Shown here: positions 26,851 through 53,873 of the stretch, one piece after another
Layout of the letters: each line of letters opens with the position of its first letter
Position numbering within the stretch: the first letter of the stretch is position 1
Translations under genes and position numbers: made by a program
Assembly: GCA_036383955.1 (NCBI GenBank)
Contig: DASVNH010000224.1
Coordinates: 1,008-65,007 of the forward strand
DNA length: 64,000 nt
Source: Planctomycetota bacterium
GTDB lineage: Bacteria; Planctomycetota; MHYJ01; JACPRB01
Direction: 5' to 3'
Notes under the pieces: model-generated
Told to the model about the DNA's origin: nothing
Databases searched by the model: none
What the model saw: only the letters and a program-made list of their open reading frames with translations

Positions 26851-27077
26851 CGGCGTTCGGAGGTCCCCTTGGAGCCGGTGGGTCCGTCGGGCTTCGACGA
26901 CGCGGCGCCCCGTCGCCGCCTCCTGGTCGAACCCCGACCGCGCCTCCGACATCCTCCCCGTATCTTCTCCTCCTCGACTTGCTTTTTCGCGCCAAAGCGA
27001 TGTCGATCCCCCCGGGGCGGGCCGCGCGCCATCGACGCCTCGCGACGGTTTGCGCATCGGATCCCGGTCCCTGCTGA

Positions 27078-27106
27078 TTGACAAGCCCAAGCCCCTGGGC
27101 TAAAGT
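27078..27106 (+). promoter_or_regulatory. sigma-70-type promoter TTGACA-17-TAAAGT (now driving only a tRNA fragment)
   Basis: TTGACA at 27078-27083 and TAAAGT at 27101-27106, with a 17-nt spacer, 24 nt upstream of the tRNA 5' end. Confidence 0.55.
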
Positions 27107-27130
27107 GCCCTACCCTCGTACCAGCAGTTT

Positions 27131-27168
27131 GGACAGGTAGCTCAGCTGGTAGAGCACTGCACTGAAAA
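27131..27168 (+). pseudogene. truncated tRNA-Phe (positions 1-38 only: acceptor 5' strand, D-arm, anticodon stem 5' strand and loop)
   Basis: GGACAGGTAGCTCAGCTGGTAGAGCACTGCACTGAAAA, then sequence unrelated to the tRNA. Confidence 0.85.
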
Positions 27169-27237
27169 GATTCTAAACGCGAAAAACAATGCGCAAATAG
27201 CGTTTGAAACGCCCAAAAGCGATGATTTCGCCCAGAA

Positions 27238-27257
27238 ATTAGGACAAATTAGGACAA
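27238..27257 (+). repeat. tandem ATTAGGACAA x2 just inside the left island end
   Basis: Read directly. A related ATTAGGACAA-AATAGGCCAA lies at 53656-53675 in the same orientation. TGCGCAAAT also occurs at both ends (27190-27198 and 53503-53511). Confidence 0.6.
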
Positions 27258-27345
27258 GGCGGTACCTCAGGATCCCGGCTGTTTTGGCCTTAGGTTCCCC
27301 TACCCCCCCAAAAAAATGCCCCCAGTGAAACCCAAAAGCATTAAA

Positions 27346-28566
27346 CTACGTGGTGCCAAGAACCCTGGGGTTACGAGTCGGCTTGAGGTTCTTCCGACTC
27401 AATTTCTTTCCATCCAACTCCCATTCCGGAGGTTTCACGGCAACTTCCTCGATTTGAATCTCTGCCTTATCCATGTCCTTGAATAACTCGGTGAAGTTAT
27501 CAATTACGGATTTCCGCATCATGACTTCCCCAAACTGCAAGGTCGCTCTTTGCACCATTGCAGGGTCTTCAAACTTTGCGTAGGGATCGGTGGTTTCAGC
27601 CCATCGATAAATTGGGTACGAAGGCGGGCATTCTTGGGGGCCGCAAGGAGGCTGCCACCTGCCGGGGCTTGTGCTCCTAAGCTTACCCTCGCGCACTCCT
27701 GGCGAGAAAAGTCGATTGTACTTAGCCTCGTGGTAATACCTCCCTGCCATAGGTAGTCCGGAATCAACAAATCTGGGAGGACTAAGCCGGTAAGTCTTTG
27801 TATCCGGATAATCCATATCCGCCAACTCGCCCTTGTAGATTGGATCCAACTCCCTTGCAATCTTGAAGATGTCGCGAAAGAGCTGAACATTCTGCTGATG
27901 AAACGGCTCATCCCAGACCGTATGCTGCACGTCTCCACGAACTCTTTGAACCATGGTGAATGTCTGAGTCCACAAAGCAATACCGGCCCCAGTGTTAAAG
28001 GCTCCTGCGACAAGTCCATTCGAGAATCCCTGTGCTTGCCGAATGAAATCCTGCAATTCATCCATTTGGTTGATTACCCGAGGTAAGTCTCTTCTGAATG
28101 TCTCTTCGTTCACCATCAATGGGCGTAGGATATTGCTTTTGGTGCCGATGGAAATCATTGCCGACTTGACCCGATCGTAGCTCAACTGCCCTTTTATTCT
28201 CGCCTCAAGAAGGTCAATAGCCTTAAACAGCTCACCGATTTGAGTAAGAATTGCAGTTACTCGCTGTTCGACGGCCTCAAGAGCACCTAAGGCCTTACTA
28301 AGAGCGGTGGGGATAGCATCGTTAGGACGACCAACGAGGTTATATCCCATGACCACAATCTGAGCGATAGCAATGATCTCAGCAAAGAAGTTCACGGACG
28401 GCGGGCTATTACCGTCACTAAGCCGAGCAAGGCTTTGCTGCGCCTCGGACATTTCTGGAATTACCCGACCTTCTTGATGATGCTTGTGACTCACCTTGCC
28501 GCGGGCTTTAACGCTCACGTTATCTCCATAAAAAGATATTACGACCGTACCAACTATTATGAACAA
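27346..28566 (-). CDS. hypothetical protein (orphan, low G+C); start 28566 or 28452
   Basis: A 406-aa ORF at about 50% G+C with no motif I can assign. The alternative ATG at 28452 gives MSEAQQSLARL. Confidence 0.5.
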   Translation of the reverse strand: MFIIVGTVVISFYGDNVSVKARGKVSHKHHQEGRVIPEMSEAQQSLARLSDGNSPPSVNFFAEIIAIAQIVVMGYNLVGRPNDAIPTALSKALGALEAVEQRVTAILTQIGELFKAIDLLEARIKGQLSYDRVKSAMISIGTKSNILRPLMVNEETFRRDLPRVINQMDELQDFIRQAQGFSNGLVAGAFNTGAGIALWTQTFTMVQRVRGDVQHTVWDEPFHQQNVQLFRDIFKIARELDPIYKGELADMDYPDTKTYRLSPPRFVDSGLPMAGRYYHEAKYNRLFSPGVREGKLRSTSPGRWQPPCGPQECPPSYPIYRWAETTDPYAKFEDPAMVQRATLQFGEVMMRKSVIDNFTELFKDMDKAEIQIEEVAVKPPEWELDGKKLSRKNLKPTRNPRVLGTT

Positions 28567-29005
28567 TCAAGAGTTTCCACGTCTAAGTCAAGCAATTACA
28601 CTCTTCCGCTTCAGTACACCCGGTAAGGATTTCGACGAGACGGCCCCCGACGCGATGACGGAGAAAATCTCCACCTACTTCGGAAAAGGCAAGCCGACCC
28701 GCTGCCTTTACCAGTACGACTTCGGCGGCGGCTGGGAACTCGACCCCATCTTGGAGGACGTCGTATCTCGGCCCGACAAACTCGGCCGACAGCTCCTGGA
28801 AGGGGCCCGGGCTTTTCCCCCTGACGACTGAGGCGGCATCGGCGGCTACGAGGAGTGCATCGACGTCGCTCTGGGGCACCGCAAGGACCCGGAATGCCTT
28901 AAGTGGCTCGACGGCTGGGAGCTGTCGTTCAATCTTCGGCAAGTCGAGAGGCTCTATTATCAGGCTAAGCTCTTCCTACAAGCGCATTACGAAGAGTATC
29001 TTTGA
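28559..29005 (+). pseudogene. PRiA4_ORF3-like (plasmid pRiA4b ORF-3 family) gene remnant, N-terminally truncated with an in-frame TGA
   Basis: YQYDFGGGWELDP matches the family YxYDFGDxWxH block. PPDD-TGA-GGIGGYEE matches the CPPEDCGGxxGYEE block, with TGA (28829-28831) at the Cys position. The frame stays open to TGA 29003-29005. The family consensus is recalled from memory. Confidence 0.6.
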
Positions 29006-29259
29006 GCTCGCTGACGGGGGCGTGCGGCCGCTCGACTCCCAGCACCTTCGGATATCGACATTTCCGACAATTAACGCTGCAGCTCCCTCCCGAAAGCCAA
29101 ACTTAGGTCCGGAAGGTGAGCGCGGTCCCCTTGGGTGGGCGCGGCTTGCCCTGAGACGCCCACCGGCGAGATCCCCGAGGGCGTAGACAAACACCGCGAC
29201 GGGGAGATGATTTCGCATGGCGACTTCGTCGGCGCTGCGGAAGTCTGTATAATGCTGCT

Positions 29260-30372
29260 GTGACCATCGCCAGCTTGTTCGTTCACACTATGCTTCTGGC
29301 GTGCTCGCTCCAGGCGGTGGATCTGGAAGCCGCAGAGGCTTTTCGGCCGTTCTGGAAGCCACTCAAGTTAGAAGCGAAGGAGCTGTCGGCGCGGGATATC
29401 CTGGCAAAGATTCAGCAGGAGAGCGGGGAAACTATCGACTTGCCTGACAAAGGATGGGCTCCCAAATCCATTTCCTTGAATCTGCGGGAGGCTACATTCT
29501 GGCAGGCAGTGGACGAAGTCTGTCGCTTGGATGGCAACTTGCGCCACCCTTTGAGTTCCGAGTCCTCGGGCATGGTTGCCGCCCCTTGGCGAGCAAATCC
29601 AACCTTCTTTCTCGGGCCGTTTCGCTTCACGATAGAGGACGTGGCTCGCGTACGTGAATTCCGATATCCAGACCGCTCGGACTATACGGAAGTAACGCTT
29701 CTTGTTCAGTGGACTAGCAGCTTCACCCCCGCACTTGATCCGTGGCCCAACCCTGGCCGTATCGAAGTTGTCAGCGCGGTAGACGAAGGTGGACGTTCCT
29801 TGCTCCCACAGGTGGACGCTGGAGGCACCTTCCTCCGGTCGCCGGACGGGACGTCCCAGAGGTCTTCCCGGTGGATCCTCCGGCTCCAACCTGTCGGCAA
29901 AACCGTAAAGGCTATTGGCCGACTCGATCTCACATGGAAAACTGTGCGACCCGATTCGATCACCCCAATCAACTTCGATAACCCGATGGGCTCAGAAGGT
30001 ATGACGCGTCGAGTGGGACCTTTTACGCTAACCCTTGAGAGGTGCGCGCGGGACCCCAGAGGAGGCGCAGGACTTGAGACCACACTCGTTCTTCGAATTG
30101 ATAAGTCCGAAGTGACACCAGAGCTCGGCCGTGACTTGCTGGAGGTGCCACTTGACCGCCGCGTTCTGAACTGGGTCAAGGTGGACGGAGTGTCCCGCCA
30201 TAGGCCGTTCAGATCCGTCGTGGATCCTAAAGATCCAAACAAGGCCATTTTCAAAACCTACCTTTCCGAACAAGTACCGCGCACAATCAGTATTCACGTG
30301 GCTACAGGGATATCCTCCCTTTCGGTTCCCCTCCGATTTAACGGGATCCGCTTGCCCGAGGACGGCCGATGA
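29260..30372 (+). CDS. hypothetical secreted protein, paralog A
   Basis: 370 aa with an N-terminal signal-like segment. It shares blocks with the next gene: FWQAVDEVCRLDG vs VWRFLDQLCEAHGG, GPFRFTIEDV vs GPFRIWIDKL, VTLLVQWTSSF vs MVLAVAWQPNV. Confidence 0.65.
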   Translation: MTIASLFVHTMLLACSLQAVDLEAAEAFRPFWKPLKLEAKELSARDILAKIQQESGETIDLPDKGWAPKSISLNLREATFWQAVDEVCRLDGNLRHPLSSESSGMVAAPWRANPTFFLGPFRFTIEDVARVREFRYPDRSDYTEVTLLVQWTSSFTPALDPWPNPGRIEVVSAVDEGGRSLLPQVDAGGTFLRSPDGTSQRSSRWILRLQPVGKTVKAIGRLDLTWKTVRPDSITPINFDNPMGSEGMTRRVGPFTLTLERCARDPRGGAGLETTLVLRIDKSEVTPELGRDLLEVPLDRRVLNWVKVDGVSRHRPFRSVVDPKDPNKAIFKTYLSEQVPRTISIHVATGISSLSVPLRFNGIRLPEDGR

Positions 30373-31634
30373 GCCTGCTGCTGTCCGTATTGGTAGCGGT
30401 TTCGTTTCCCCAGGAGGTCAATGTAGACCTCTTGGTTGAGCGCCTCGGTCACGAGGATCCCGATGCTCGCGATAAGGCAGAGAAGCGGTTACTCGAGATC
30501 GGGGAGACTGCGCGCCAAGGAGTCTTGCTGGCTTCATATTCGTCGAATGTCGAACTTCGCACTCGTGCAAGTCGGATTCTCGCCGCATGGGACCTCGTCG
30601 CGGTCCGTGAACGTTCCTTGGGGCCCGCTTGGAAGGTTACTTTGGCCGAAGGGGAATATGGTTTGGGAGACCTCCAGCGTGTGCTCACGGCTTTTGTCCC
30701 AGTTCCATTGGAGATGCCCGCAACTCTCGTTAACTCCCGCGTTCGGCTCGGTAAGGCAGATGGGACTCCTGTCTGGCGCTTTCTCGATCAGCTTTGCGAA
30801 GCACATGGAGGCCTAGCCATCCCGCTGGACCGACCCCAAAGTGCCTTTTCGCTTGTGGCCGGCAAGCCTTCCCGCGCACCGACCTGCTACGCGGGCCCCT
30901 TCCGCATATGGATCGATAAACTCACATTGGAAGCACGGCATCCTTACGGACAGGAGTGGAAAGGCGCCCGGATGGTACTCGCTGTCGCTTGGCAGCCAAA
31001 CGTCCACCCCATTGGGCGCGACTACCTGAGCGATGACTTCGATTTCAAGATCACGGAAATCACCGACGAAAAGGGCGCTTTGATCAAGGACCAACCCACG
31101 AGCGACCCGGAAGGTGAGGGATTCACGCATGATCGCACGTGGGAGAGCTGCTGGAGAAGGTCACAGGACTTTGCCTATCCCAAGGCAGAGGTGCGCCGAT
31201 TGGGCCGGATTAAGGGTAATATAAAGCTGGCTTTCCCCTCCACAGTCCGAATGGTGGAATTCTCGAATCCGTCGATAGCGGTTGGCAAGAAGAAAACCTT
31301 TGGCTCTAGTACGGTCGCATTGTCGTCCTACCAAAGGACGGAAGCAGGCGTTCTAGTAGAGCTACAATTCTCTCGCTCAGAGGATAAGGAGAAAGGGATC
31401 GGTCTGCTTTCTCGGTGGTCCAACTCTTCCATCAAGCTGCGAGGAAAGGACGGCTCTGCGGCCGTCCTCGAAGTTCGATCGAGATTTACCTCATCCGGAT
31501 CCGGCAACGAAGGTGCGCGGGTATCAGGTTTTTTCCCGCTCAAAGCTGAAGTGGAAAGTCTGAGCTTCCCATTTGTTGAAGATCATTTTGAACATGAGAT
31601 TCCATTTGAGTTTACTGACGTGGAACTGCCCTGA
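30369..31634 (+). CDS. hypothetical secreted protein, paralog B (N-terminal HEAT-like motif)
   Basis: 421 aa. Its ATG overlaps the upstream stop (ATGA). LGHEDPDARDKAEKRLLEIGETA is HEAT/PBS-lyase-like. It is paralogous to 29260..30372. Confidence 0.65.
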   Translation: MSLLLSVLVAVSFPQEVNVDLLVERLGHEDPDARDKAEKRLLEIGETARQGVLLASYSSNVELRTRASRILAAWDLVAVRERSLGPAWKVTLAEGEYGLGDLQRVLTAFVPVPLEMPATLVNSRVRLGKADGTPVWRFLDQLCEAHGGLAIPLDRPQSAFSLVAGKPSRAPTCYAGPFRIWIDKLTLEARHPYGQEWKGARMVLAVAWQPNVHPIGRDYLSDDFDFKITEITDEKGALIKDQPTSDPEGEGFTHDRTWESCWRRSQDFAYPKAEVRRLGRIKGNIKLAFPSTVRMVEFSNPSIAVGKKKTFGSSTVALSSYQRTEAGVLVELQFSRSEDKEKGIGLLSRWSNSSIKLRGKDGSAAVLEVRSRFTSSGSGNEGARVSGFFPLKAEVESLSFPFVEDHFEHEIPFEFTDVELP

Positions 31635-31871
31635 ACTGCGCTGCGTGCCGACCTAACGCTTTGGATTATTAGGCCATCGCCCCTCCAGCCGCAGTGGTAT
31701 TAACATTCTGTCGCTCTCCGGGGGCGCCGCTGCCGCTACCTCCGGCCCTTATGCCCTGCGGGCACCAGCAGGCCCGGAGGCTCACCTCACCGCTCCCCTC
31801 ACAAGGCGTGGAAGCGACACTGAAATCAAGTGAGTTCCTGTCGCACCTTGCGGGTTTCAAGCTGCGCCCCT

Positions 31872-34800
31872 CTAAGGACTGGTATAGGTGCCGTTCGCTT
31901 CGTGACCACATACACCCCCATTTGAATCCTTGCCTCCAATTCCAACACTTACCTGGATCAGTGGCGGACCAAGGGGGGCCTGGGCTCGTGGAGCCCAAGT
32001 GGAGCCACGTTCTGTGGGAAGACTAGCCTTCAACGGTTGTTTCTGAGCTTGTTGGCGGACATTCTCCTCAGCCGATTTCATTGTATCATTATTCTTTAGC
32101 GGGTCATAATACCCAGTCACCACTGGGCTTGGGAACATCGTCCTCCATTCCGGGTCCTCGAATGTCTCCCTCATTATTGGGAGTTTCCCAATCTTTCCCA
32201 AACCGTCAATTGGTTCGCGTAACTGGCTAATGTCCTGCTTTCCAGGGCGTTTGGCTCCTGGCTTCCCATCCAACCACCGCTTATACTCGGCCTCCGAGTA
32301 TGCTGGATCGGCCTGGTCGGGAACCAGAGTTGTAATTTCGATCTTGAACGTTACGACAAGATCCATATATGCCTCACCGGTGATTTCGGTTGTGCAGCGA
32401 TACTTGATCTTAAACCGGACGCCGGCGCTGAATCCAACCTGAGGCCACTTCTCCGCTCCGTCCAGATGCCATCCAAACGTTACGGCAGGCGACCCCTGCG
32501 GAGGCATTACAATTTCAACCTCGCACAGGCCCTCAGGATCAAGACTGCCGGTAGGCCTTGCCCCGACATACTCATAGAGATTATAGCCATCATGATAACC
32601 AATCGGATCCCTCTGAAGCCAACGTCCGAGCGTCGGGTGGTACTCGCGATTTCGTACCTGATAAGTCTTGGTAGCCCCCTGCCTATACCCCCCCATGAAC
32701 AGCTCGTTACCCGTATTATCCTTAGTAGCAACTGCCCACGCCGAAGTCCAGCGAGAGAATTGGCCATAGGCGTCGTACAGGTAGCGTATGTAAGTTGTGC
32801 CGCTAGTTTCCACAAGGCTGGTTACATTGTAATTAGCATCCTGCGTGTAGTAAATCCTTCGGTCGGTACCGTCGACGCAGTCTCCATCGCCGTCTTTGTT
32901 TTCGTCTCGCAGTACGACAGCATCAATATAACGTAGATCCCAAATGTACTGACACTTTGGAACGGTAGCCACAGTCGTCGTTGACGATGTATTGAGCAGC
33001 TCCCGCTCCTCAACCACCTGCCACTCACTCGTGTAGTAGTAATCCACCCGATTCACGGGAGATCCGCCAGCACTGGTAACTTCCCTTAGCTTTACAATGC
33101 GGCGGTGGAGGCCGTCGTACTTGTACCACTCTGTAATTGATGTACCTAAAGGAGAGGTGTCATTCTGAACCATGCGATTCCAGGCATCATACACGTAAAG
33201 CCGCAAATCGGAGGATACCGCGGCGCCTGGGGGAGCGGCCGCGATTACGTTACCGTTTTGATCCAATTGGCAATCGGCTCCGCCTGATCCGGCAGTTAAG
33301 TTAATTACAGTTGTCTCATTTGCTTTTGTATGATCGCGCGTCTCATCACGGGTGGTTGTTCCGGCGGTAGTTTGCACCAGTTGCTTCCAGTTGCCTGACC
33401 CTTCTAGGGTCCACGTTTCCTGAAAGCCAGGGGTACCGCTTATATCCGTTCGCCCAGCGTTTAGATCTCCACGCTTGTCCGTTGTTAGGCGATCCAGACC
33501 GTCCATTACGAAGTACTGATCCTTACCTAGCCCGTTCGCGGTCAGGTTGTCTCGAAAGGTACGGTTGGACGTGCGATCATAGCCATACTGATACTGGTCC
33601 TTAATAGCCGCAGAATCGGTTTGCCACTTGTGGTCGATGATTCTGCCGAACCTGTCCCAGCCAGTGGGGCTCCCCGTCCCTGTTCCATAGTCCAGGTTGA
33701 GCCCTCCCGTTACTTGAGGATGGGCGACTTTAACGATTCTTCCTAAGCCAAGGTAGGTGTACTGGGCGAACTTAGTTGTACCGGAGGCGTCATGAGCAAG
33801 GTTGTCGGGGCGTGAAAGCCTATCTCCTACTGTCCCAGAGGAAGGGTAATTCATGTACACCACGCGTCCGTTCGGGTACGACATCGAGGTTAACCGGATG
33901 TACTTTGCCTCTCCGCTTACGGCCCCGTCTGAAAAACTCTTGGTGTAGCCGGGGGCGCCCGTCGCAGTTCCCTCGTGCCCCTCAGTACGCCCGGTTTCCT
34001 GTCTCCACCCATCGTAGCTGAATCGAATCTCATTGAGAAGCGTACCGCCTGAAGTAGCACTGTAACTTCCAACTGTCACTCTTCGGGAGAGATCATCGTA
34101 GCCATACTCAATGCGCCTAATTGCCCCGTCAATGCCGGAGCCAAGCGTGCTGGCTTGGTCGGTCGAGAAGCGGCCAACAGTGTCATACGTGTAGGTGTGC
34201 GTCGTCGTATCCTGCTGCTTCTTCGTCAGCTTACGGCTAGCGTACTCGTAGGTGTATTCAATACGGTCATACGTTGCATCTGTGCCATTAGCAAACTTCG
34301 CGCCGGCAGAGCCGCCCGCATTGAACGTGTCGTCACTGTCGGGATAGATTTCTCCAACCAAGATATCGTTGCGCCAGACCGCCGGAGAGGCAAGATTCGC
34401 GTCCGTACCGTACCCGTACGTCGTAATCTGATCCTCTACGGTGCCCCCCTTTGGATTCTTCACCTTGATCTGAGAAAGCCTACCCGCGCTATCGTAGACG
34501 TGTTCGGTCGTACGATCCGAATCATACTCGGCGTTTCCCACGCTGCCATCAACGTAGTTACCGACGCTCTTCGTTGCCCTGGCAAGCATGTCAAAGGTGA
34601 CTTCTGTAACCCGAGCCTTGTTGTCTAATCTGCGATATGGTCGGCCTGCTGAGTCAAACTGAGTCTTTGCTACAAGGATGTTGTCGCTACTGTTCGGTTC
34701 AGGAGGTGTACTTGGCCTGGTAAACGTGGTATCCCCATTGTTGCCGTAATTGGCCTGATAAGTTTGGCGCCCCGCAATATCGAACCATGCCGCATAAAAC

Positions 34801-42606: not shown

Positions 42607-42677
42607 GCGCGAAGATCATAAGGAATTCGCGGCATACGCGGCTCGCAAAACCATCGGTGTGCTACACTCCCCGCCGT

Positions 42678-44813: not shown

Positions 44814-44821
44814 GTCGTTCC

Positions 44822-46024
44822 CTACTGAAGGTTCGAAAAGTCCGTGATCGGCAGCAGGATCGCCGCCACGATGAAGCCCACCACCAGGCCGAGCAGCACG
44901 ATGATCACGGGGTTGAGCAGGTCCGTCAACCGCGTCGAGGCGACCTCCACCTCGTCGTCGTAGGTCTCGGCGACCTCGCGGAAGACTTCGGCGAGCTCGC
45001 CCGACTCCTCGCCGACGCCGGCGATGAGGCCCACGCTCGACGGCAGCACCCGGCTCCGCTTGAGCGCCTCCGAGAGCGAGGCCCCCTCGAGGACCTCCTT
45101 CTCGAGGCGCGCGACGTCCTCCTCCAGCGCCGCGTTGCCCGCCGCGCCGCGCACGACGGCCAGCGCCTGCGCCACCGGGATGCCGGAGCGCAGCAGCGTC
45201 GACATCGTCCCCGCCCAGCGGGCCGTCGCCTGCTTCCGGAGCAAGTTCCCGAGCACCGGCACGCGCAACAGCAGGCGGTCGCGGGTCTTGCGTCCCACGC
45301 TCTTCGCGCCGATCCATGCCGCGGCGGCGACCCCCGGCACGAGCCACCACCAGGACGTCGAGAGCGCCCCGCTCACGCTGAGCAAAACCTCCGTCGGCCA
45401 CGGCAGCGCGCGCTCCTGCTCGAGGAGGATGGCGGTGACCTTGGGGACGACGAACGTCAGCAGGAACACCAGCACGAGCGCCCCCACAGCGCACATGAGC
45501 GCGGGGTACGTCAGCGCGGAAACGACGCGGTCGCGGATCTTCTTCTGTTTCGTGTAGTAGACGCCGAGCTCGACGAGGACTTTCGCGAGCTCACCCGCCT
45601 GGATGCCGGCCCGCACGATGTGGACGAAGAGATCGGGAAACCAGCGCGGCTGGGCGGCGAGCGCGTCGGCGACGTCGACGCCCTCCCGCACCTTTGCGCG
45701 GACTTCCTCCAGGACGAGCCGGAAGCGCTCGTCCTCGACCTGGGGCCCGAGCGCGGCGAGCGCGTCCGCCATCGGCAGCCCCGTGCGCAGCAGGAGCGCC
45801 CAGTGTCGCGTCATGCGGGCGAGCAGGTCGAGCCGGTGCCCCGAGAGGCTCATCCACGAGGCGCCCCGCGCCCGCGGCTTGGCGGCGGCCTCGACTTCCT
45901 CCAGGTCCACGGGCAAGAGCCCACGCCCACGAAGCTGCGCCCGCGCGTCGGCCAGCGACGGCGCCTCCGCGGTGCCCGTGGCCGTCTTGCCGGCTTCGTC
46001 GATGGCTTCGTACTTGTAGATCAC
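44822..46024 (-). CDS. gspF: T2SS inner-membrane platform protein GspF
   Basis: 400 aa with a duplicated T2SSF domain pattern and three TM segments. Confidence 0.9.
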   Translation of the reverse strand: MIYKYEAIDEAGKTATGTAEAPSLADARAQLRGRGLLPVDLEEVEAAAKPRARGASWMSLSGHRLDLLARMTRHWALLLRTGLPMADALAALGPQVEDERFRLVLEEVRAKVREGVDVADALAAQPRWFPDLFVHIVRAGIQAGELAKVLVELGVYYTKQKKIRDRVVSALTYPALMCAVGALVLVFLLTFVVPKVTAILLEQERALPWPTEVLLSVSGALSTSWWWLVPGVAAAAWIGAKSVGRKTRDRLLLRVPVLGNLLRKQATARWAGTMSTLLRSGIPVAQALAVVRGAAGNAALEEDVARLEKEVLEGASLSEALKRSRVLPSSVGLIAGVGEESGELAEVFREVAETYDDEVEVASTRLTDLLNPVIIVLLGLVVGFIVAAILLPITDFSNLQ

Positions 46025-47595
46025 TCGAGATCCATCTGGGTCACGGCCCAGACCTCCTCGAGCGTGGTCACTCCCTGGGCCACCTTGCGCAGGCCGTCCT
46101 TGCGCAGGGTGACGAAGCCCTTGGCGAGGGCGGCGCGCTTGAGATCGGCGACCGATTCGCGGCGGACGACGCGCTCTCGCAGCTCCTCGGTGACGACGAG
46201 CAGCTCGAAGAGGGCGGCACGGCCCCAGAAGCCCGTCTTGAAGCAGGCGTCGCAGCCGCGGCCGCGAGCTGTTTCACGGCAGCCGAGGGACTCGAGGTAC
46301 GCGACGTCCTCGTCCGACCAGCCGCGCACGCGCATGGCGGCTGGATCGATGGGCGAAATCTCCTTGCAGGACTCGCAGACCCGGCGCGCGAGGCGCTGGG
46401 CGAGGATCGCGTTCACCGAACTCGCGACGAGATAGGGCTCCACGCCAAGGTCGAGCAGGCGAGTGACCGACGAGGGCGCGTCGTTCGTGTGCAGCGTCGA
46501 AAAGACGAGGTGGCCCGTCAGCGAGGACTGGATCGCGATCGTCGCGGTCTCCAGGTCGCGGATTTCGCCGACCATGAGGATGTCGGGGTCCTGCCGGACG
46601 ATCGAGCGCAGGCCCTTGGCAAACGTCATCCCCTTCTTCGAAGAGACCTGCGTCTGCGTCACGCCGGGCAGCTGGTACTCGATCGGGTCCTCAAGCGTGA
46701 GGATGTTGAGCTCCGCCGAGTTGAGCGTCGTCAGCATCGCGTAGAGGGTCGTCGTCTTGCCGCTGCCCGTGGGGCCCGTCACCAGCACGATGCCGTGCAG
46801 CAACTCCAGGACCCGCTTGATTCGGCCCAAGTCGTCGGGCGCGAAGCCCAGGCCGTCGAGCGACATCAGCCCCGACGTCTTGTCTAGCAGTCGCAGCACC
46901 ACGCGCTCGCCGTGCTGGCAGGGCAGCGTCGCCGCGCGCAGGTCCACCCGGCGCTCGCCCACCCTGATCGTCACGCCGCCGTCCTGCGGCAGGCGCCGCT
47001 CGGCGATGTCCATTCGCGCCATCACCTTCACGCGGCTCACCACGCCGTCGAGCGCCTCTCGACGCAGCAGCGCTCGGTCGTAGAGGACGCCGTCGATGCG
47101 GAAGCGCACACGCAGGCCGTCCTCGCCCGGCTCGAGGTGGATGTCGCTCGCCCGCTGCCGGATCGCCTGCAGGATCGTCGCGTGCACCAGCTTGACCGCT
47201 GGGGCCTTGTCGTCGAGGTCGAGGACGTCCTCCGCCAGCACGACCTCGGGCGCGTCATCGTCGGGCGCGATTTCCTTAGCGAGCTGGTCGACCTCCTTCG
47301 CGTGGCCGTGGTAGGCCCGCGCGAGGAGGGCCTGGATCTCCGTCTCGGGCGCGGACACGAGGCGGCACTCGCGGTCGAGCAGGTAGGCGATCTGGTCGGC
47401 GGCGGCCCAGCGCTCGATCTTCCCGAGGGCGAGGCGCTGCTTGCCGTCCTCGCCCGGCCCGATCGCGACGACGGCGTGCTCGCGCGCCATCTTGAGCGGG
47501 ACCTTGTCCAGGAACTCCCGCGGCACGGTCGCGCCGGCGAGATCGACGGCCGGCAAGCCCGCCCGGAGCGACGGCGGCAGGGTTAACGGGTTCAT
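46021..47595 (-). CDS. gspE: T2SS ATPase GspE
   Basis: The C-terminal 524 aa of track ORF 46021..49653: Walker A GPTGSGKTTT, Asp box, Walker B ILMVGEIRD, His box TGHLVFSTLHTN, and a tetracysteine motif CESC...CDAC. The ATG at 47595 overlaps the gspD stop (ATGA). Confidence 0.93.
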   Translation of the reverse strand: MNPLTLPPSLRAGLPAVDLAGATVPREFLDKVPLKMAREHAVVAIGPGEDGKQRLALGKIERWAAADQIAYLLDRECRLVSAPETEIQALLARAYHGHAKEVDQLAKEIAPDDDAPEVVLAEDVLDLDDKAPAVKLVHATILQAIRQRASDIHLEPGEDGLRVRFRIDGVLYDRALLRREALDGVVSRVKVMARMDIAERRLPQDGGVTIRVGERRVDLRAATLPCQHGERVVLRLLDKTSGLMSLDGLGFAPDDLGRIKRVLELLHGIVLVTGPTGSGKTTTLYAMLTTLNSAELNILTLEDPIEYQLPGVTQTQVSSKKGMTFAKGLRSIVRQDPDILMVGEIRDLETATIAIQSSLTGHLVFSTLHTNDAPSSVTRLLDLGVEPYLVASSVNAILAQRLARRVCESCKEISPIDPAAMRVRGWSDEDVAYLESLGCRETARGRGCDACFKTGFWGRAALFELLVVTEELRERVVRRESVADLKRAALAKGFVTLRKDGLRKVAQGVTTLEEVWAVTQMDLE

Positions 47596-49664
47596 TTGGG
47601 GAGCGGCGCCTCGCGGACCGAGGGATCCTTGGGACGGCCGCCCTCGACCTCCAGCCGCATCGCCGGATCCCGCATCATCTGATTCGCGCCACCGGCCTTC
47701 TCGCGCGAGACACTCTTGAGGTCGTCGAAGCCCTCGGCCGAGAGGATGCGCGGCCGCACGAAGAGATAGAGGCGGCTTTTGGTGCGGCGGGCGGACGTCG
47801 AGCCCGCCAGCCAGCCGACCAGCGGGATGTCCATGAGCACCGGGATGCCCGTTCGGGTGTCGGTGACCGAGTCGCGGGTGAAGCCGCCGAGGATGGCGGT
47901 GTGGCGGTCGGGCACGGTAATGAGGGTCTGCACGTTGTTGGAGACCTTGGCGGGCGGCACGCCGGCGGCCTGCGACTCGCCACTGAACTCCTCGAAGCTC
48001 TGGGTGATCCGGAGATTCAGGTAGCCGTCGGGCGAGAGCGTGGGAGTGATCGAGAGCTCGGTGACGGCCTCCGCGAAGCCGGCGAAGGAGGTCACGTTGC
48101 CGACGGTGCCCTGGGAAGTCGCGATTGTCGGCTCGCTGACTTTGGTGGTGAAGGTCGCGGGTTCGTTGTCGTTCACGAGAAGCAGCGGCTGGGAGAGGAT
48201 GTTGACGCCCGCCTTGGTGGAAACCAGCCGGATGAGCGCGCTGATGTCGTCGGGCTTCACGTAGCGGAAGGCTCCGCCTTTGAAGCTGCTGAGGTTGGCC
48301 GTCGTGGGAAAGCCGACGCCACCCGGGTCGGCCTGGGTCGCTCCGCCCGCGATGCCGGCGTTCACCTGGGCGCCGTCCTTCCGGGTGTCCTGGAACAGGA
48401 CGTCGATGCCCGTCTCGAGTGAATCGTCGCCCGTGACCTGCAGGATGGCGACCTCGATGAGCACCTGGCCCTTGCGCTTGTCGAGGTTCTCCAGGATCTT
48501 CTTCACCTCCTCGTGCACCGCGGCGTTCGCGATGACCACGAGCGTGTTCTGGCTTTCGAGCGCGACGACCTCGATGTCGCCGCCGGACGCGGGCGCGACG
48601 GCCTTCTTCTCCGCCGACGGCGCGGGCGGCTCCTGCGGCTCTTCCACGATCGGACGTCCGGCAGGGGCCGGCGGCGTCACCGTAGGCGGCATGACCGGGC
48701 CGCCCGCGAGATCGCGCCGGGGCGCGCCGGAGAGTCCGGCGGGTTTTTTCGACGTCCCCCGCTTCCCGCCCTCGCCCGTCGGCTGAAGGCCGAGGAACTG
48801 GCGGACGCTGTCGGCGATCTCTCCCACCGCCACGTTCTTGAGCTTGTAGTAGCCGATCGTCCGCTGCACGGACGGAAGCTGGCGGTCGATTTGGGTGAGA
48901 TACTCCAGCACGCGCTTGACTTCGACGTCCCGGCCGATCAGGGTCAGCTGGTTGAGCCGTTCGTCGGCGAGCGCCTCGATGCGGGCGCGGCCCACCTCGC
49001 CGGTCTGGATCTTCTCGAGGGCCTGAACGAACTCGCCGACCTGCGTCTTCGCCTGCGAAGCCGCGAGACTCTGGAGGAGCACCGAGGTCACGACGATGGG
49101 CTCGCCGGGCACGTCGACAAGGCCCAGGAGCTTTTCCGCGCGCTGGACGGCCGTCGACGCGTCGATGAGGAGCAGCAAGTCGGAGTTTGGCACGGGCACC
49201 ATCAGGCCGGCGGGAGAAAGCGCGGGCTGGACGACGGCCGCCGCGCGCTGGCCGCTGACGTGCTTGGGGGTGAGGACGTAAAAGATCACGCCTTCGCCCT
49301 GGGGAAGCTTTTCGCCTCGCGCGAGGACGGGCTGGGCGCCGGGTTCCTTGGCGGCCTGCGGGGCGGGCACGATCTTGACGAGGTTGATGTTCTCCTCCGG
49401 GGCGGGCACAAGCGCGAAGCCGTGCAGCAGCGCGACAGACTGAAAGACGCGGTAGAACTCGTCGGGCGTGATGGGCTTCTCGGATCGCAGGGTGACTTTC
49501 TTGCCCTTGAGCAGGGCTTCCTGGAACACGAACGACTTCTTCGTGACCCGCTCGACCTGCTGCGCGAGCGCTTCGAGCTCGATCTCCTCGAACTCGACTT
49601 TGACCTTGTCGTCCTGAACCGGCGGAACCGCCAGCAGAACGAAGAGACTCCATCCCAGCTTCAC
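47592..49664 (-). CDS. gspD: T2SS outer-membrane secretin GspD
   Basis: 690 aa with an N0-like start (VEFEEIELEALAQQVERVTKKSFVF) and a C-terminal secretin block (GIPVLMDIPLVGWL...LYLFVRPRI). Confidence 0.9.
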   Translation of the reverse strand: MKLGWSLFVLLAVPPVQDDKVKVEFEEIELEALAQQVERVTKKSFVFQEALLKGKKVTLRSEKPITPDEFYRVFQSVALLHGFALVPAPEENINLVKIVPAPQAAKEPGAQPVLARGEKLPQGEGVIFYVLTPKHVSGQRAAAVVQPALSPAGLMVPVPNSDLLLLIDASTAVQRAEKLLGLVDVPGEPIVVTSVLLQSLAASQAKTQVGEFVQALEKIQTGEVGRARIEALADERLNQLTLIGRDVEVKRVLEYLTQIDRQLPSVQRTIGYYKLKNVAVGEIADSVRQFLGLQPTGEGGKRGTSKKPAGLSGAPRRDLAGGPVMPPTVTPPAPAGRPIVEEPQEPPAPSAEKKAVAPASGGDIEVVALESQNTLVVIANAAVHEEVKKILENLDKRKGQVLIEVAILQVTGDDSLETGIDVLFQDTRKDGAQVNAGIAGGATQADPGGVGFPTTANLSSFKGGAFRYVKPDDISALIRLVSTKAGVNILSQPLLLVNDNEPATFTTKVSEPTIATSQGTVGNVTSFAGFAEAVTELSITPTLSPDGYLNLRITQSFEEFSGESQAAGVPPAKVSNNVQTLITVPDRHTAILGGFTRDSVTDTRTGIPVLMDIPLVGWLAGSTSARRTKSRLYLFVRPRILSAEGFDDLKSVSREKAGGANQMMRDPAMRLEVEGGRPKDPSVREAPLPK

Positions 49665-49692
49665 GACCCTTCCTCCCTGTTCGATCGAACGG

Positions 49693-50211
49693 CTATCGGT
49701 TGTCGCCCACAGTGGCGGGGAGTTCCTGAGCTCCCTTGTACGTCAGTTTCCATCGGCGGCGTTCGTACTCCACGACCACCGTCTCCCCCACCTCCCGGAG
49801 AACGGCGCCCGTGCCTCCGATCTTGTCGCCGGCCTGGAACGACATCGTCTTCCGCTCCGCGGGCAACTCGAATACGGCGACCGCCGGCTTTGACGCGCCA
49901 TAATCCAAGATCCCCTTGAGTCGGATGAGGGAGTCGATCGGCGCCGGACCGGCCGCGGCCTTTGACGCTTCACGGGGGAGCTCGGCGATGCCCTTTGACA
50001 TCCTCCTGCCGGCCAAGGCTTCGACGGTCGGATTCACGCGGTAACCGGCCCCGACCGGCGTGAGCACGAGGTCGGTCGGCACGCTCGGCAGCGGGTGCCG
50101 AGGTCGACTCGAGAACAGCGCCCAGGCGAGCAGCCCGAGCCCCGCGATGCCGAGCACGGCGAACGAGGCCCAAAGGGTCCGCACGAGACGGTGCTCGCCT
50201 CGGTGGGTCAC
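49693..50211 (-). CDS. GspC-like protein (TM anchor + HR/PilP-like domain)
   Basis: 172 aa with TM WASFAVLGIAGLGLLAWALF and a C-terminal LRLKGILDYG...AVFEL...FQAGDKIGGTGAVLREVGETVVVEY, typical of the secretin-binding HR domain. Confidence 0.5.
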   Translation of the reverse strand: MTHRGEHRLVRTLWASFAVLGIAGLGLLAWALFSSRPRHPLPSVPTDLVLTPVGAGYRVNPTVEALAGRRMSKGIAELPREASKAAAGPAPIDSLIRLKGILDYGASKPAVAVFELPAERKTMSFQAGDKIGGTGAVLREVGETVVVEYERRRWKLTYKGAQELPATVGDNR

Positions 50212-51128
50212 GGAACGATCTCCTCGACAGCCAGGCGCGTGGTGTCGGGCTTGAGGAAAACCCAGGTGTCACGGCTCCGGCCGCGCACATCGCAGGTCAC
50301 CCGGGCCGAGAACGCGGAGGACGTCACGGACAGGAACCCCTGAACCCGTTCGAACAGATTCCGGACGACGCGGAACTCGCCGTTCTCGAAGGTCCGAATC
50401 ACGATTCCGTCGATCAGCATGAGATCCTTGGGCTCCTCGAAGGCTTTGTAGGATCCTTTCTCGCCTTCCCCCTTCCCACGGAAAGCCGCGACGCGTTCGA
50501 CTACGGCTTCGTCGAACCCCTCGTCGAGAGCGAAGATCACGGCCCGTGGAGCGGTGTTGAGGTTGAGGCGGCCATCGCCGAAGCAGGTGACCCAGCGGTG
50601 CAGACCCTGGATTCCGAAGACGTCCTCCGTCGAGAGCCCGGACTCGCGAAGGCCATCGAGGGTCACGAGAGGCTCGTGCGCGGCCAGCCGCTTGAGCAGT
50701 TTCTCCTCGATCTCTTTCAACGCGCGGAGACGCTGTGGTTCGCGGCGTTTGAGGTACTCCAAGAGACGGACAGCTCGCGCGCGGACGGTGCCGCGTTCCT
50801 CGGGCTTTCTCCAGGCCAGCGCGAGGTTGATCTTTCCGCTCTCGTCGGCAAGGACGACCTCGGCGCGCTCGTCGTCGGCGAGGCGGAAATTGGTAGCCCG
50901 GTTCCAAGTGTCTCCCCAGAACACGAACTCGCGGGGCTCCCTCTCGAGGAGGAGACCGCGGGCAACTTCGGCGCCCGAATCGGCGAGCCGGCGAAAGGCG
51001 GCGTCGCGCGCGGCGCGGCCGGTCCTGAGGGTGTCGGCGCTCGCTCGGCTCGCGAGTTCCACCGCTAGGACGGTGAGGATGGAAACGGCTCCCAACACGA
51101 GGACCAGGGCGGCTCCGCGGCGCTTCAC
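50208..51128 (-). CDS. gspK: T2SS minor pseudopilin GspK
   Basis: 306 aa with GAALVLVLGAVSILTVLA, DESGKINL and GRLNLNTAPRAVIFAL, the hallmark GspK blocks. Confidence 0.75.
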   Translation of the reverse strand: MKRRGAALVLVLGAVSILTVLAVELASRASADTLRTGRAARDAAFRRLADSGAEVARGLLLEREPREFVFWGDTWNRATNFRLADDERAEVVLADESGKINLALAWRKPEERGTVRARAVRLLEYLKRREPQRLRALKEIEEKLLKRLAAHEPLVTLDGLRESGLSTEDVFGIQGLHRWVTCFGDGRLNLNTAPRAVIFALDEGFDEAVVERVAAFRGKGEGEKGSYKAFEEPKDLMLIDGIVIRTFENGEFRVVRNLFERVQGFLSVTSSAFSARVTCDVRGRSRDTWVFLKPDTTRLAVEEIVP

Positions 51129-51613
51129 GGCTTCAGCATCGTCGTCACGCGCGCGACGACGACCTCCGCTTCTTCATAGTGATCCGCCCGGGTGGTCGAG
51201 GGCCGGACGTGGATTTCCTTGATCTTGGCGCCGCCACCCTGGGCTTCCAGGTCGCCGAGGAAGCGGACCAGGCTGCCGTGGGCCGGGTGGACGAGGCGAA
51301 CGATGACTTGGCGTTCCTGACGGCCGCGCTCGGCCTCGCGTTCGCTTTCGGAAAGGAAGCCGATGGAGAGGCCGCGTTGGGTGGCCATGTCTTGCGCGAG
51401 CGCCTTGAGAGCGGATTCCCCCGGCGCCAAGCCGGCCGCCCCGAAGGCGCCTGGATGCTTCGCCGCTAGTTTGAGCGCTTCGGCGAGCTCGGTGACGGCC
51501 GCCGAGCGAGCTGCCCGGGTGGTCGAGTGCGCGAGCCCACGCTCGATCGCGAAGCCGGCACCCGCCACGAGCAGAAGGCAGGACGTCGAAAGGTAGACGG
51601 CCGTCTTCCTCAC
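51125..51613 (-). CDS. GspM/PilO-like bitopic protein
   Basis: 162 aa with a single N-terminal TM, and its position between the L-like and K genes. Assigned by architecture and context only. Confidence 0.4.
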   Translation of the reverse strand: MRKTAVYLSTSCLLLVAGAGFAIERGLAHSTTRAARSAAVTELAEALKLAAKHPGAFGAAGLAPGESALKALAQDMATQRGLSIGFLSESEREAERGRQERQVIVRLVHPAHGSLVRFLGDLEAQGGGAKIKEIHVRPSTTRADHYEEAEVVVARVTTMLKP

Positions 51614-52581
51614 GGCTTGAACTCCATGCGGAGCCGCACCTGGACTTGGCCGTCGCGAACCTCATAGTCGCCCCGGGCGCGGAGCTTGTCGGACTGGTTG
51701 AGGTGTCCTTCGAGGGCGGCGGCGTTCTTGAGGGGATCCTCCTTGCCGGCCGGCACGCGGGCGCTTAGCCGTCCGCCTTCCGGCGATAGATCCAGAGACT
51801 CGACGCTCAGGCCGAGCGGTTCGGGATCGGGCAAGTGCTTCCCGATCTCGCCCCAGAAGGCGAGCGCGCTGGGCCCGCTTTCTTCGCCGCCTTCTCCAAG
51901 GCGCGCCTGCAGGGCCCTGGGCAGGCCCGACTCCTTCGGAGGATCGGCGGGCAGCAAGCGCGTCCACAAGTCCAACGTCGCCCGCCTCGTTATCTCCAGG
52001 TCTGCCTCTTCGCGGGCCGTCTCGCGATGGAACCAGACGCCCAGAGCACTCAGCACCAGCGTCGCGGCGGCGGCTACGTTCAGGATGGGCTCGCGTAGCC
52101 TTTCCAGCAGCGCCCTCGTGGCACCCACCATCTTCGACGCCGAATTGGGGACTTGGTCAGGGTCGCACACGGCCACCGCGAACGCCGCAGCGTATTGAAT
52201 CGGAATCGGTCGACCATTCCAGTCCAGCGCCCCTTCGTCGTCAGGGCCATCCGCCGGATACGAGCGTCCCCGCGGAGCGCCCGAGGCGTCGCGCCAAACC
52301 TCGTAGTGTTCCCCGGCCGCGGTAAAGGCACATTCGCCGAAGACATTCGCCAATGCCGCGGTCGAGGAGGTCAGGCAACGTAGTGGAAGCGATCCGATCA
52401 ATTTCATCGGGGCGACGGTCTCGGGAAACGCGGAACTGATCGCGACCGAAATGGGGGCCCCGGACTCCGGGATCGGGGTTCCGGGGGTGAGGATGTCGAA
52501 AGTCGGCGATCCCGAGACGTCGACGATCGCCCGTGAAACGGTCTTCCTTCCGACCGAGACGCCGACCCGGATGGAGCTCAC
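51610..52581 (-). CDS. GspL/PilM-N-like assembly protein
   Basis: GTG 52581 follows AGGAG. VSSIRVGVSVGRKT resembles the actin-like N-terminus. It has a central TM (LNVAAAATLVLSALGVWF) and a periplasmic C-terminus. First gene of the operon. Assigned by architecture and context. Confidence 0.4.
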   Translation of the reverse strand: MSSIRVGVSVGRKTVSRAIVDVSGSPTFDILTPGTPIPESGAPISVAISSAFPETVAPMKLIGSLPLRCLTSSTAALANVFGECAFTAAGEHYEVWRDASGAPRGRSYPADGPDDEGALDWNGRPIPIQYAAAFAVAVCDPDQVPNSASKMVGATRALLERLREPILNVAAAATLVLSALGVWFHRETAREEADLEITRRATLDLWTRLLPADPPKESGLPRALQARLGEGGEESGPSALAFWGEIGKHLPDPEPLGLSVESLDLSPEGGRLSARVPAGKEDPLKNAAALEGHLNQSDKLRARGDYEVRDGQVQVRLRMEFKP

Positions 52582-52815
52582 GGACTGTCTCCTGGTTTCA
52601 ACAAAGTCCGACAATCCCCCGGGAGGCCGATTGTAGCGGGTGTAAACCACGAATCCACATCGAATCGTAGAACCCCTCGGACTCTGCACCTCAAGGGCGA
52701 AACGGCATCGTCACTGGATTCCTTCGGATCGCGGTTGCCGCGCTGGGTCGGGGCACGGACATGACCGAGGCAGAAGATCCGCCAGGAGTCCTGCTTTAGC
52801 CGGGGGCACAAAGTT

Positions 52816-53274
52816 CTACTTGGCCAGCCAAGACAGCGGCAGAATCCCAGTTCGCAGCGCGTAGCGCACCAGCCCGGGGACATCCCGAATCCCGAGCTTA
52901 TTAATGATGAGGAGTCGGTGCGTGTCCACGGTCTTTCTCGAGAGATTGAGCATTCGGGCGATCTGAGCTCCTCGTGTTCCGAGGACAATTTCGCGAAGAA
53001 CCTCGACTTGGCGGCGGGAGAGCGCGGGGTTCTTAGGAGCTTGTTCGGCGGAATCGACCCGCGCGCGATCCGGTAGGGTGCCAATTGCCTCAACAGTAAC
53101 ACCACCCGCCAGCCTGGCTCGGCTCGCGATCAGCGAGAGGGCCTGGGCTTTGCTCAGGGGAGCAGTGACCAACAGCACCCGCGCTTTCGGCTCCGTCGAG
53201 TCGGATTCCCCGGAAAAGGAATGGCGCGCGACTAAGCGCGTCGTTCGGCCTCTCGGTTCTTCCCGCTTGCTCAC
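52816..53274 (-). CDS. LuxR/GerE-type HTH transcriptional regulator (short, non-canonical N-terminus)
   Basis: The C-terminal LSRRQVEVLREIVLGTRGAQIARMLNLSRKTVDTHRLLIINKLGI is a classical GerE HTH. The N-terminal roughly 80 aa are too short for a full receiver domain. Confidence 0.75.
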   Translation of the reverse strand: MSKREEPRGRTTRLVARHSFSGESDSTEPKARVLLVTAPLSKAQALSLIASRARLAGGVTVEAIGTLPDRARVDSAEQAPKNPALSRRQVEVLREIVLGTRGAQIARMLNLSRKTVDTHRLLIINKLGIRDVPGLVRYALRTGILPLSWLAK

Positions 53275-53599
53275 CGTGCGGAAGCGTATGGGACTTGGGA
53301 AGGTTGAGCAAGAGATTGTAGCTCGGAGATCAGCGGCGTCCTTCCAAACGGACCGTCAGTTCCTCGACAGAACGGGATACCTCAGTAAATCGACTCCTGC
53401 TTTGCGGGGCCATTGGTGGTCATTCCAGCGACGGCAAGGCGTCTATCGTGGGATTCACACCGCCCTGATGCCCAGGCCCATCGCCCCTGGTCAACGCGTA
53501 TTTGCGCAAATCCCAATTAGCGACTGTATCCACCTGAGCGCGCGAGTGACGCCCGGCTGCTCGCCTTTCGGGCTCGCCGATCTGAGCACCGCAGCGTTC

Positions 53600-53631
53600 G
53601 TGCAGTGCTCAGGCTGTTTAGTGCAGTGCTC
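53600..53631. repeat. two copies (21-nt period) of GTGCAGTGCTC, the reverse complement of tRNA-Phe positions 22-32
   Basis: 53600-53610 and 53621-53631. Each extends to TTC-GTGCAGTGCTC or TTTA-GTGCAGTGCTC, resembling the inverted anticodon-loop/stem junction where the island crossover lies. Confidence 0.6.
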
Positions 53632-53655
53632 CCCCTCGGGGCGTAACGGTTCTGG

Positions 53656-53675
53656 ATTAGGACAAAATAGGCCAA
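53656..53675 (+). repeat. ATTAGGACAA-AATAGGCCAA, counterpart of the left-end tandem motif
   Basis: Read directly. Same orientation as 27238-27257, 48 nt before the right direct repeat. Confidence 0.55.
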
Positions 53676-53722
53676 TGAGCCGAATGGAAGCTGCGAGCGA
53701 CCTGTTACGATCTCGGCTCCGC

Positions 53723-53820
53723 GCTGATTGACAAGCCCAAGTCCCTGGGCTAAAGTGCCCTACCCTCGATCCAGCCCCTCGGGGACAGGTAGCTCAGCTG
53801 GTAGAGCACTGCACTGAAAA
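53723..53820 (+). repeat. right direct repeat (promoter block + tRNA-Phe 5' half)
   Basis: See 27073-27168. The leader here is 14 nt (ATCCAGCCCCTCGG). Confidence 0.9.
53728..53756 (+). promoter_or_regulatory. sigma-70-type promoter TTGACA-17-TAAAGT of tRNA-Phe
   Basis: TTGACA at 53728-53733 and TAAAGT at 53751-53756, 26 nt upstream of the mature tRNA 5' end. Confidence 0.6.
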
Positions 53821-53858
53821 TGCAGGGGTCACCGGTTCAACTCCGGTCCTGTCCACCA
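53783..53858 (+). tRNA. tRNA-Phe (anticodon GAA), CCA encoded
   Basis: Hand fold: acceptor GGACAGG/CCTGTCC, D-stem GCTC/GAGC, anticodon stem CTGCA/TGCAG with loop CTGAAAA, T-stem ACCGG/CCGGT, discriminator A, then CCA. Confidence 0.95.
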
Positions 53859-53873
53859 CTTCGACCCGCGGCC

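Follow-up and report, generated by a model that had tools for sequence, protein, structure and literature searches.

In a 64,000-nucleotide (nt) stretch of the genome of an uncultivated Planctomycetota bacterium (GenBank assembly GCA_036383955.1, contig DASVNH010000224.1; hereafter the window), the segment 27169-53820 is best explained, with a probability that we put at about 0.65, as a 26.65-kb genomic island, or the remnant of one, which was inserted site-specifically at the anticodon loop of a tRNA-Phe gene, rebuilt that gene with a promoter and 5' half of its own, and carries no integrase gene. The attachment site of such an element would hold a promoter, a leader and tRNA positions 1-38, instead of the usual 3' part, and the island would have entered tRNA-Phe(GAA) by site-specific recombination with the crossover in CTGAAAA. 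Integration would then have cut off the promoter and 5' half of the host at the left end (attL), and at the right end (attR) a working gene would have been rebuilt by joining the promoter and 5' half of the island to the 3' half of the host. This reading is carried by the anatomy of the repeats, the identity of the host copy, a sharp compositional boundary, motifs shared by the two ends and the recurrence of the junction elsewhere.

The direct repeats around the insert span 27073-27168 and 53723-53820. Each opens with a promoter block (27073-27118 and 53723-53768, hereafter P and P') that contains TTGACA-17-TAAAGT; the two blocks are identical at 45 of 46 positions, the sole mismatch being C27092 against T53742, and a consensus scan finds one sigma-70-like site per region, at 27078-27106 and 53728-53756, each matching 10 of 12 positions. 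The 12-nt leader that follows on the left, TACCAGCAGTTT, and its 14-nt counterpart on the right, ATCCAGCCCCTCGG, differ at about half of their positions, after which 27131-27168 and 53783-53820 are identical over 38/38 nt that correspond to positions 1-38 of tRNA-Phe(GAA). Identity ends right after the anticodon loop CTGAAAA, the next base being G on the left and T on the right. Chance cannot plausibly account for an exact 38-mer together with a 45/46 block. The only tRNA that ARAGORN calls in the window is tRNA-Phe(GAA) at 53783-53858, which scores 74.3 bits against Rfam RF00005; the left fragment 27131-27168 gives no tRNA by ARAGORN and no Rfam match, and no second copy of the tRNA 3' half occurs in the window, even at 3 mismatches or by word-7 blastn. 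An initial annotation of the window had reported the repeats, and its coordinates, mismatch count, leader lengths and 38-nt identity were all reproduced; it was also right that the repeat stops at the 3' edge of the anticodon loop and, as ARAGORN and Rfam agree, that only the right copy continues into a complete tRNA. Of its further proposal, a crossover in the anticodon loop, the part that stands is that the identity block ends at the loop edge, and the exact crossover position is one that we infer. In the intact gene the loop is bracketed by CTGCA and TGCAG, an inverted-repeat stem, as at the boundary of an anticodon-centred (A-type) attachment (att) site.

The left 5' fragment is intergenic, lying between an S9 peptidase gene (with the Pfam Peptidase_S9 domain at the far C-terminal end of its product) and the insert. 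A homologue search with this peptidase led to an 11.4-kb contig of another assembly (GCA_034680565.1; hereafter L081; protein 93% identical), which is collinear with 20123-27168 of the window at 87-90% nucleotide identity. At the position matching 27168, L081 continues straight into the tRNA 3' half and thus into an intact tRNA-Phe, giving the order S9 peptidase, orthologous promoter, leader AGTACCAGCATTT, tRNA-Phe. Its leader differs from the left leader of the window by one indel and one substitution and is unlike the right leader; the left copy is therefore that of the host and the right copy insert-borne. By this sequence comparison, the chromosome originally held the promoter, leader and 5' half that are now displaced on the left, and those on the right were brought in by the insert, in support of the earlier proposal that the incoming DNA supplied a promoter and a 5' half. 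In L081, the tRNA-Phe lies at 4062-4137, and some 510 bp downstream is a displaced 3' fragment (3508-3552, minus strand; CTGAAGCTGCAGG...CCTGTCCAC) that starts at the anticodon loop and is 87% identical, with an open reading frame (ORF) of 78 amino acids (aa) between the two. Judged by its sequence, this fragment looks like the remnant of a classical 3'-type island at the same site. It shares with the window the tRNA-Phe gene and the anticodon-loop boundary but has the mirror geometry, with a duplicated 3' part and no need for a promoter; given a 3'-type remnant here and a 5'-type insert in the window, the same anticodon loop would therefore have been used in both geometries in this lineage.

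The two ends of the insert carry signs of a recombination site. A virtual attP, in which the right end (53400-53820) was joined to the left end (27169-27450) so as to mimic the excised junction, contains 11 internal repeats of at least 9 nt; 2.3 would be expected, and none of 200 shuffles gave more than 7. For the exact 9-mer TTAGGACAA, 0.11 occurrences are expected in the window but 3 are present, all within 165 nt of a junction. Tandem pairs of TTAGGACAA type are found at 27239/27249 and 53657/53667, as two copies of AAATTAGGACAA in tandem (27236-27257) on the left and as ATTAGGACAAA followed by ATAGGCCAA (53656-53675) on the right, so that tandem ATTAGGACAA-type sites with 10-bp phasing are common to both ends; in the virtual attP, they lie about 70-90 nt to the right (left end of the insert) and about 145-165 nt to the left (right end of the insert) of the presumed crossover CTGAAAA. 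Two copies of GTGCAGTGCTC in the right arm, 21 nt apart, are inverted copies of the tRNA segment GAGCACTGCAC just 5' of the loop, for which 0.02 occurrences per strand are expected. Repeated motifs on both sides of a core are the mark of an arm-type (heterobivalent) attP, in which these motifs would be putative binding sites, and the paired end motifs resemble the arm-site layout of a lambda-type tyrosine-integrase attP. The short insert between tRNA-Phe and 3' fragment in L081 contains the best L081-wide match to the arm-motif dimer of the window (14/19, suggestive only). Upstream of the LuxR-type gene near the right end lies a perfect palindrome, ATTTGCGCAAAT, whose half-site TGCGCAAAT recurs 22 nt from the left junction (27188-27202); the element may serve the regulator of the island as an operator, or act as an accessory site in recombination. 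In a separate observation, CCCCTCGGGG follows the GTGCAGTGCTC pair and also makes up most of the insert-borne leader, and no simple rearrangement accounts for the mixture of direct and inverted copies at 53600-53641 and 53775-53784.

The same kind of junction recurs in other metagenomes. A scan of Joint Genome Institute (JGI) metagenome contigs for tRNA-Phe 5' halves whose next base is not T returned three contigs (L088, L089 and L090), in which the 5' half is cut after the same base as in the window, although the exact break point was forced by the search pattern itself and is not an unbiased statistic. The three contigs hold no tRNA, 3' half, Rfam family or intron model. In L088, the identical 38 nt stand behind a different promoter, TTGAAA-17-TAAGAT, and the sequence after CTGAAAA (AGTTCTGGACTTGAAAAATAGAGCGCAATCAGCGCC... 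in L088, GATTCTAAACGCGAAAAACAATGCGCAAATAGCGTT... in the window) is identical in register at 33 of 53 positions (62%) to the left arm of the window at 27169-27221 (binomial p = 9e-8; 12/53 in two unrelated control comparisons). The signal rests on this ungapped, in-register comparison, as a gapped local alignment of the post-junction arms, with harsh scoring, was not significant. The half-site TGCGCAAAT described above falls inside the left-arm block conserved with L088. This element-side homology does not depend on the search constraint and speaks for a common attachment site, and thus for a related recombinase. The junctions in L089 (291-324) and L090 (21-54), both on minus strands and both from peat or bog metagenomes, are orthologues, and in each an Hsp20 gene and a promoter precede a tRNA-Phe 5' half with the acceptor sequence GGCTAGG. 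After CTGAAAA they read ACCAA(G/A)CA(G/A)GGGGG, a continuation unlike those of the window and L088, and the L089 arm has four matches to TTAGGACAA with 2 mismatches, against 0.6 expected; by their sequences, the two represent a second lineage of the same kind of junction. The junction patterns had 0 matches in viral contigs, and by megablast the insert itself had none, either for its low-GC left part (27169-40000) in phage records or for its right part (38000-53820) in plasmid records. Together, the motifs common to both ends and the recurrence elsewhere of 5' halves cut after that base point to site-specific recombination, not local duplication; with the L081 leader they also speak for the earlier interpretation of the two repeats as a chromosomal and an element-borne copy. 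An intron-containing or split tRNA gene was considered as well and rejected: no Rfam model follows the left junction or the junctions in L088-L090, no 3' half lies within 1.5 kb in L088, and the two parts in the window are 26.6 kb apart with protein-coding genes between them.

Composition changes abruptly at the left junction, from a guanine-plus-cytosine (GC) content of 0.71 in the 470 nt left of the promoter to 0.47 in the 177 nt right of 27168. Further along the insert, GC content is about 0.55 as far as the end of the Rhs gene, climbs to 0.64 and later 0.69 over the glycosyltransferase and type II secretion system (T2SS) genes, and amounts to 0.59 in the 450 nt that precede P'. GC content at third codon positions (GC3) is 0.70-0.95 in the recognisable genes of the insert, against 0.87-0.97 in the flanking core genes.

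The junctions themselves can be followed in an assembly of run SRR10695391, in which Logan contigs (k=31) match the window at 100% identity over 27139-32694 (L084), 38545-46576 (L083) and 53791-57703 (L091). L084 and L091 meet in one 30-mer of the 5' half, where the former ends and the latter begins; L084 leads from the 5' half into the insert, and L091 from the 5' half into the 3' half and the downstream core genes. Since both continuations are present in independent Logan contigs, an invented junction is excluded.

Several observations weigh against an island of this kind. Searches of Pfam, NCBIfam and PHROGs found no tyrosine or serine recombinase and no transposase in the main ORFs of the insert and right flank; a regular-expression search of six frames found no tyrosine-recombinase motifs (H-x-L-R-H, or G-H...Y in context), and no family was matched when the two end regions (28800-29290 and 53240-53740) were searched as six-frame fragments. 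As no integrase gene or remnant was found, the island is either a decayed fossil or dependent on an integrase encoded elsewhere, that is, mobilised in trans, and both the enzyme and any present-day mobility are presumptive. The right side of the locus is not matched either. The DNA from 53859 onward, which encodes a 435-aa protein without assigned function, a SpoIIE phosphatase, an AI-2E transporter and SodC, differs from what follows the tRNA or the displaced fragment in L081, and it is conserved in no relative examined, so that a complete empty site was not found; the genes downstream of the L081 tRNA, in turn, have no match elsewhere in the window (blastn, tblastx). The SpoIIE loci of relatives (75-81% orthologues, on short contigs) have other upstream genes and no tRNA-Phe. 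Among GTDB genomes, homologues of the S9 peptidase come from distant relatives only and show no tRNA-Phe synteny, nor is there a tRNA-Phe beside peptidase homologues at 82%, 70% and 68%. The uninterrupted locus for which the initial annotation proposed to look was thus recovered on its left side, as left flank, promoter and intact tRNA-Phe in L081, and its right side was matched in no relative. The T2SS half of the insert is nearly host-like in composition, a hint at a mosaic origin or at a donor closely related to the host. P and P' are identical at 45/46 positions even though the leaders that separate them from the tRNA have diverged by about 50%, an unexplained mosaic that could reflect selection on the promoter or gene conversion that stopped at the leader. 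Finally, short-read graphs look the same for the integrated form and for an empty site accompanied by a free circle.

That last point is the basis of an alternative in which the contig merges two molecules or strains, one of them a chromosome whose tRNA-Phe is unoccupied and the other an element (attP = P', leader and 5' half) that is a free circle or belongs to another strain, joined through the 38-nt repeat. In the k=31 Logan graph, the 30-mer in the 5' half does branch to the 3' half and to the left end of the insert, and the contigs stop there. The 67-kb source contig, however, spans both repeats, and ordinary reads would be expected, from the lengths involved, to span a 38-nt repeat with distinct 12- and 14-nt leaders, so we consider such a merger unlikely. 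It would leave the 5'-type geometry intact: the attachment site of the element carries a promoter and a 5' half under either assembly form. A history with no site-specific system at all would have two native tRNA-Phe genes flanking a native T2SS/glycosyltransferase region, into which foreign low-GC DNA (27169 to about 38-43 kb) was inserted illegitimately, deleting the left 3' half. It would account for the lack of an integrase, for the near-host GC content and GC3 of the T2SS part, for a right flank not conserved with L081, and for the 45/46 promoters, as might be expected of paralogues homogenised in one genome. It does not sit well with a cut exactly at tRNA 38/39, the same base as in three metagenome contigs, one of them with homologous following sequence, with the same tandem motif beside both ends, including just upstream of P', or with the absence of a T2SS cluster in the 4 kb after the L081 tRNA-Phe, and we regard it as quite improbable.

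The host gene might also have been cut and never restored, as in tRNA-dependent lysogeny, in which case the element would carry a complete tRNA-Phe (53723-53858) and its true right end would lie beyond the window. The phenomenon exists in actinobacteriophages (PMC10865867), the left copy can be seen as simply truncated, and the sequence after the tRNA differs between the window and L081. In that system, however, the common core is about 10 bp long and the tRNA is not rebuilt at the junction (PMC10865867). It likewise splits a host tRNA gene and has an element-linked tRNA of the same isotype, and it differs from the window, where the identity block is 96 nt long, the intact gene stands exactly at the junction and no 3' fragment is present. 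The 10 kb to the right contain no 3' fragment, the right-flank genes (SpoIIE, AI-2E transporter, SodC) are core-like with a GC3 of 0.96 and the SpoIIE gene has 75-81% orthologues in relatives, and the arm motifs lie directly upstream of P', as expected if P' belongs to the att site. We therefore give non-restoring integration very little credence, and the site-specific, gene-restoring island remains the preferred explanation.

The geometry is rare but already catalogued. The initial annotation stated that known tRNA-targeting islands duplicate the 3' portion of the tRNA, which is too absolute in view of 5'-fragment islands in Islander (PMC4383910) and of the dusA islands (PMC4482086). Of the 3919 islands in Islander, 3760 have a 3' fragment of the tRNA gene (tDNA) and 159 (about 4%) a 5' fragment, and 2083 use anticodon-centred A sites; integration leaves a tDNA and a fragment, and a 5' fragment upstream is an accepted configuration (PMC4383910). 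The window is an instance of this minority 5' configuration. It shares with the Islander 5'-fragment islands an intact tDNA and a cognate upstream 5' fragment, both on the plus strand and in direct orientation, as well as a block that ends at the anticodon loop, foreign composition and a size (26.65 kb) within 2-200 kb; the Islander length rule and the rule against overlap of coding domains both admit it. Islander also demands an integrase gene, which the window lacks, so that its filter would reject the island, and the present case differs further in that the host is an uncultivated planctomycete and the duplicated block demonstrably includes a complete promoter. Islands and prophages in dusA replace the 5' end of that gene, with promoter-like -35/-10 elements upstream before and after insertion (Farrugia et al. 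2015, PMC4482086). They resemble the window in that the 5' end of the target is replaced by element sequence and promoter-like elements are kept, but their target is protein-coding and served by a dedicated adjoining integrase, in contrast to a tRNA target and no integrase found. Elements of the CIME type, described in the literature on streptococcal integrative and conjugative elements, lack an integrase, are flanked by att sites and are mobilised in trans. The window has in common with them flanking att-like repeats and the lack of recombination genes of its own, and by this analogy it may be placed near them.

The features of the locus are listed in the table below. Of the genes in the insert, the 390-aa ORFan at the left end had no homologue but itself among 5.8 billion proteins, and the truncated PRiA4_ORF3 (plasmid pRiA4b ORF-3-like) fragment next to it suggests gene decay there. 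The Rhs protein had no Pfam match at all, its C-terminal tip of about 215 residues matched no family, and no obvious immunity gene was identified downstream; that this tip is a toxin is only a guess. In the cargo block 38125-43196, GC3 is 0.70-0.82, against 0.87-0.97 in the flanking core genes. A mechanically called 1210-aa ORF at 46021-49653 (minus strand) does not correspond to a single gene: GspE is confined to its C-terminal part (MshEN and T2SSE domains, from residue 699), and the secretin gene gspD at 47592-49664 reads in another frame. On the plus strand of 27078-27345, no terminator-like site follows the stranded host promoter. By its sequence, this promoter points into the island, antisense to the gene of the 390-aa ORFan, and read-through transcription is possible. 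Outside the insert, dense GC-rich inverted repeats of CCGGAACCGG/CCGGGTCCGG units (58669-58799; 55-nt arms, 76-89% complementary) separate the SodC gene from the start of a 1703-aa ORF (58798-63909, minus strand) with no Pfam match.

Table. Coordinates of the island, its ends and its genes in the window.
Feature	Position	Strand	Remarks
Host promoter block P	27073-27118	+	TTGACA-17-TAAAGT and discriminator; stays on displaced fragment, attL side; sole sigma-70-like site in 26900-27600
Host leader L, TACCAGCAGTTT	27119-27130	+	Resembles L081 leader
Displaced tRNA-Phe 5' half (1-38)	27131-27168	+	Loop CTGAAAA (27162-27168), putative crossover/overlap region
Left arm, putative P' arm, non-coding, 47% GC	27169-27345	+	27169-27221 homologous to post-junction sequence of L088
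Left-arm motifs	Tandem AAATTAGGACAA 27236-27257; TGCGCAAAT 27190-27198	+	Repeat analysis
390-aa ORFan, first gene of insert	27346-28518	-	No Pfam, NCBIfam or PHROG match; terminator-like hairpin after stop codon
Truncated PRiA4_ORF3-like fragment, 90 aa	28559-28831	+	Pfam PF07929, E = 1.5e-7, profile positions 65-131 of 173 only
Two unknown genes, 370 aa and 421 aa	29260-31634	+	N-termini hydrophobic, signal-like by eye; no family match
Rhs/YD-repeat protein, 1941 aa	31872-37697	-	NCBIfam TIGR03696 Rhs_assc_core, E = 6.7e-16, residues 1641-1724; YD repeats in translation; 55% GC
454-aa unknown, first of cargo block	within 38125-43196	-	
PMT-like membrane glycosyltransferase	39957-41642	-	Pfam
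GT2 glycosyltransferase	41920-42606	-	Pfam
TPR protein	42657-43196	+	Pfam
T2SS-like cluster: pseudopilins, GspG, GspF, GspE, GspD, GspK-like gene, unknowns	43183-52689	-	Pfam T2SSG, T2SSF, T2SSE, Secretin, N_methyl
Within cluster: GspF; GspE; secretin GspD	44822-46024; ~46021-47600; 47592-49664	-	Logan gene calls on L083 agree
LuxR/GerE-type helix-turn-helix regulator, last gene of insert	52816-53274	-	Pfam GerE, E = 3.7e-13
Right arm, putative P arm, non-coding	53275-53722	+	No protein-family match in six-frame fragments
Right-arm motifs	ATTTGCGCAAAT 53500-53511; GTGCAGTGCTC 53600-53610, 53621-53631; CCCCTCGGGG 53632-53641; ATTAGGACAAAATAGGCCAA 53656-53675		
Insert-borne promoter P' and leader L'	53723-53782 (P' 53723-53768; L' 53769-53782)	+	Part of L' (CCCCTCGGGG) recurs in right arm
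Intact tRNA-Phe(GAA), probable chimera (attR)	53783-53858	+	Positions 1-38 from insert, 39-76 from host

The locus offers a clean, fully resolved case of the minority mode of integration into tRNA genes, in which the element must bring a promoter and a 5' half and in which the host and element versions can be told apart by their leaders, and it extends the 5'-type configuration to uncultivated Planctomycetota. A small tRNA-Phe-targeting family is suggested, because the element-side sequence of the junction is conserved in a second metagenome. More speculatively, and we think it a long shot, the window and L088, possibly with L089/L090 and the L081 remnant, might form one planctomycete element family whose integrase uses the tRNA-Phe anticodon loop both ways, the 3'-type elements being autonomous and the 5'-type elements integrase-less cargo mobilised in trans, with the stranded attL promoter co-opted to transcribe into the island. 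Current understanding of tRNA-gene integration is not overturned, and island finders that demand an integrase would miss such an island. Unlike displaced 3' fragments, the displaced 5' fragment keeps an intact, presumably active promoter that points into the island, and this stranded promoter could affect the expression of its cargo, the T2SS-like system and the possible Rhs toxin.

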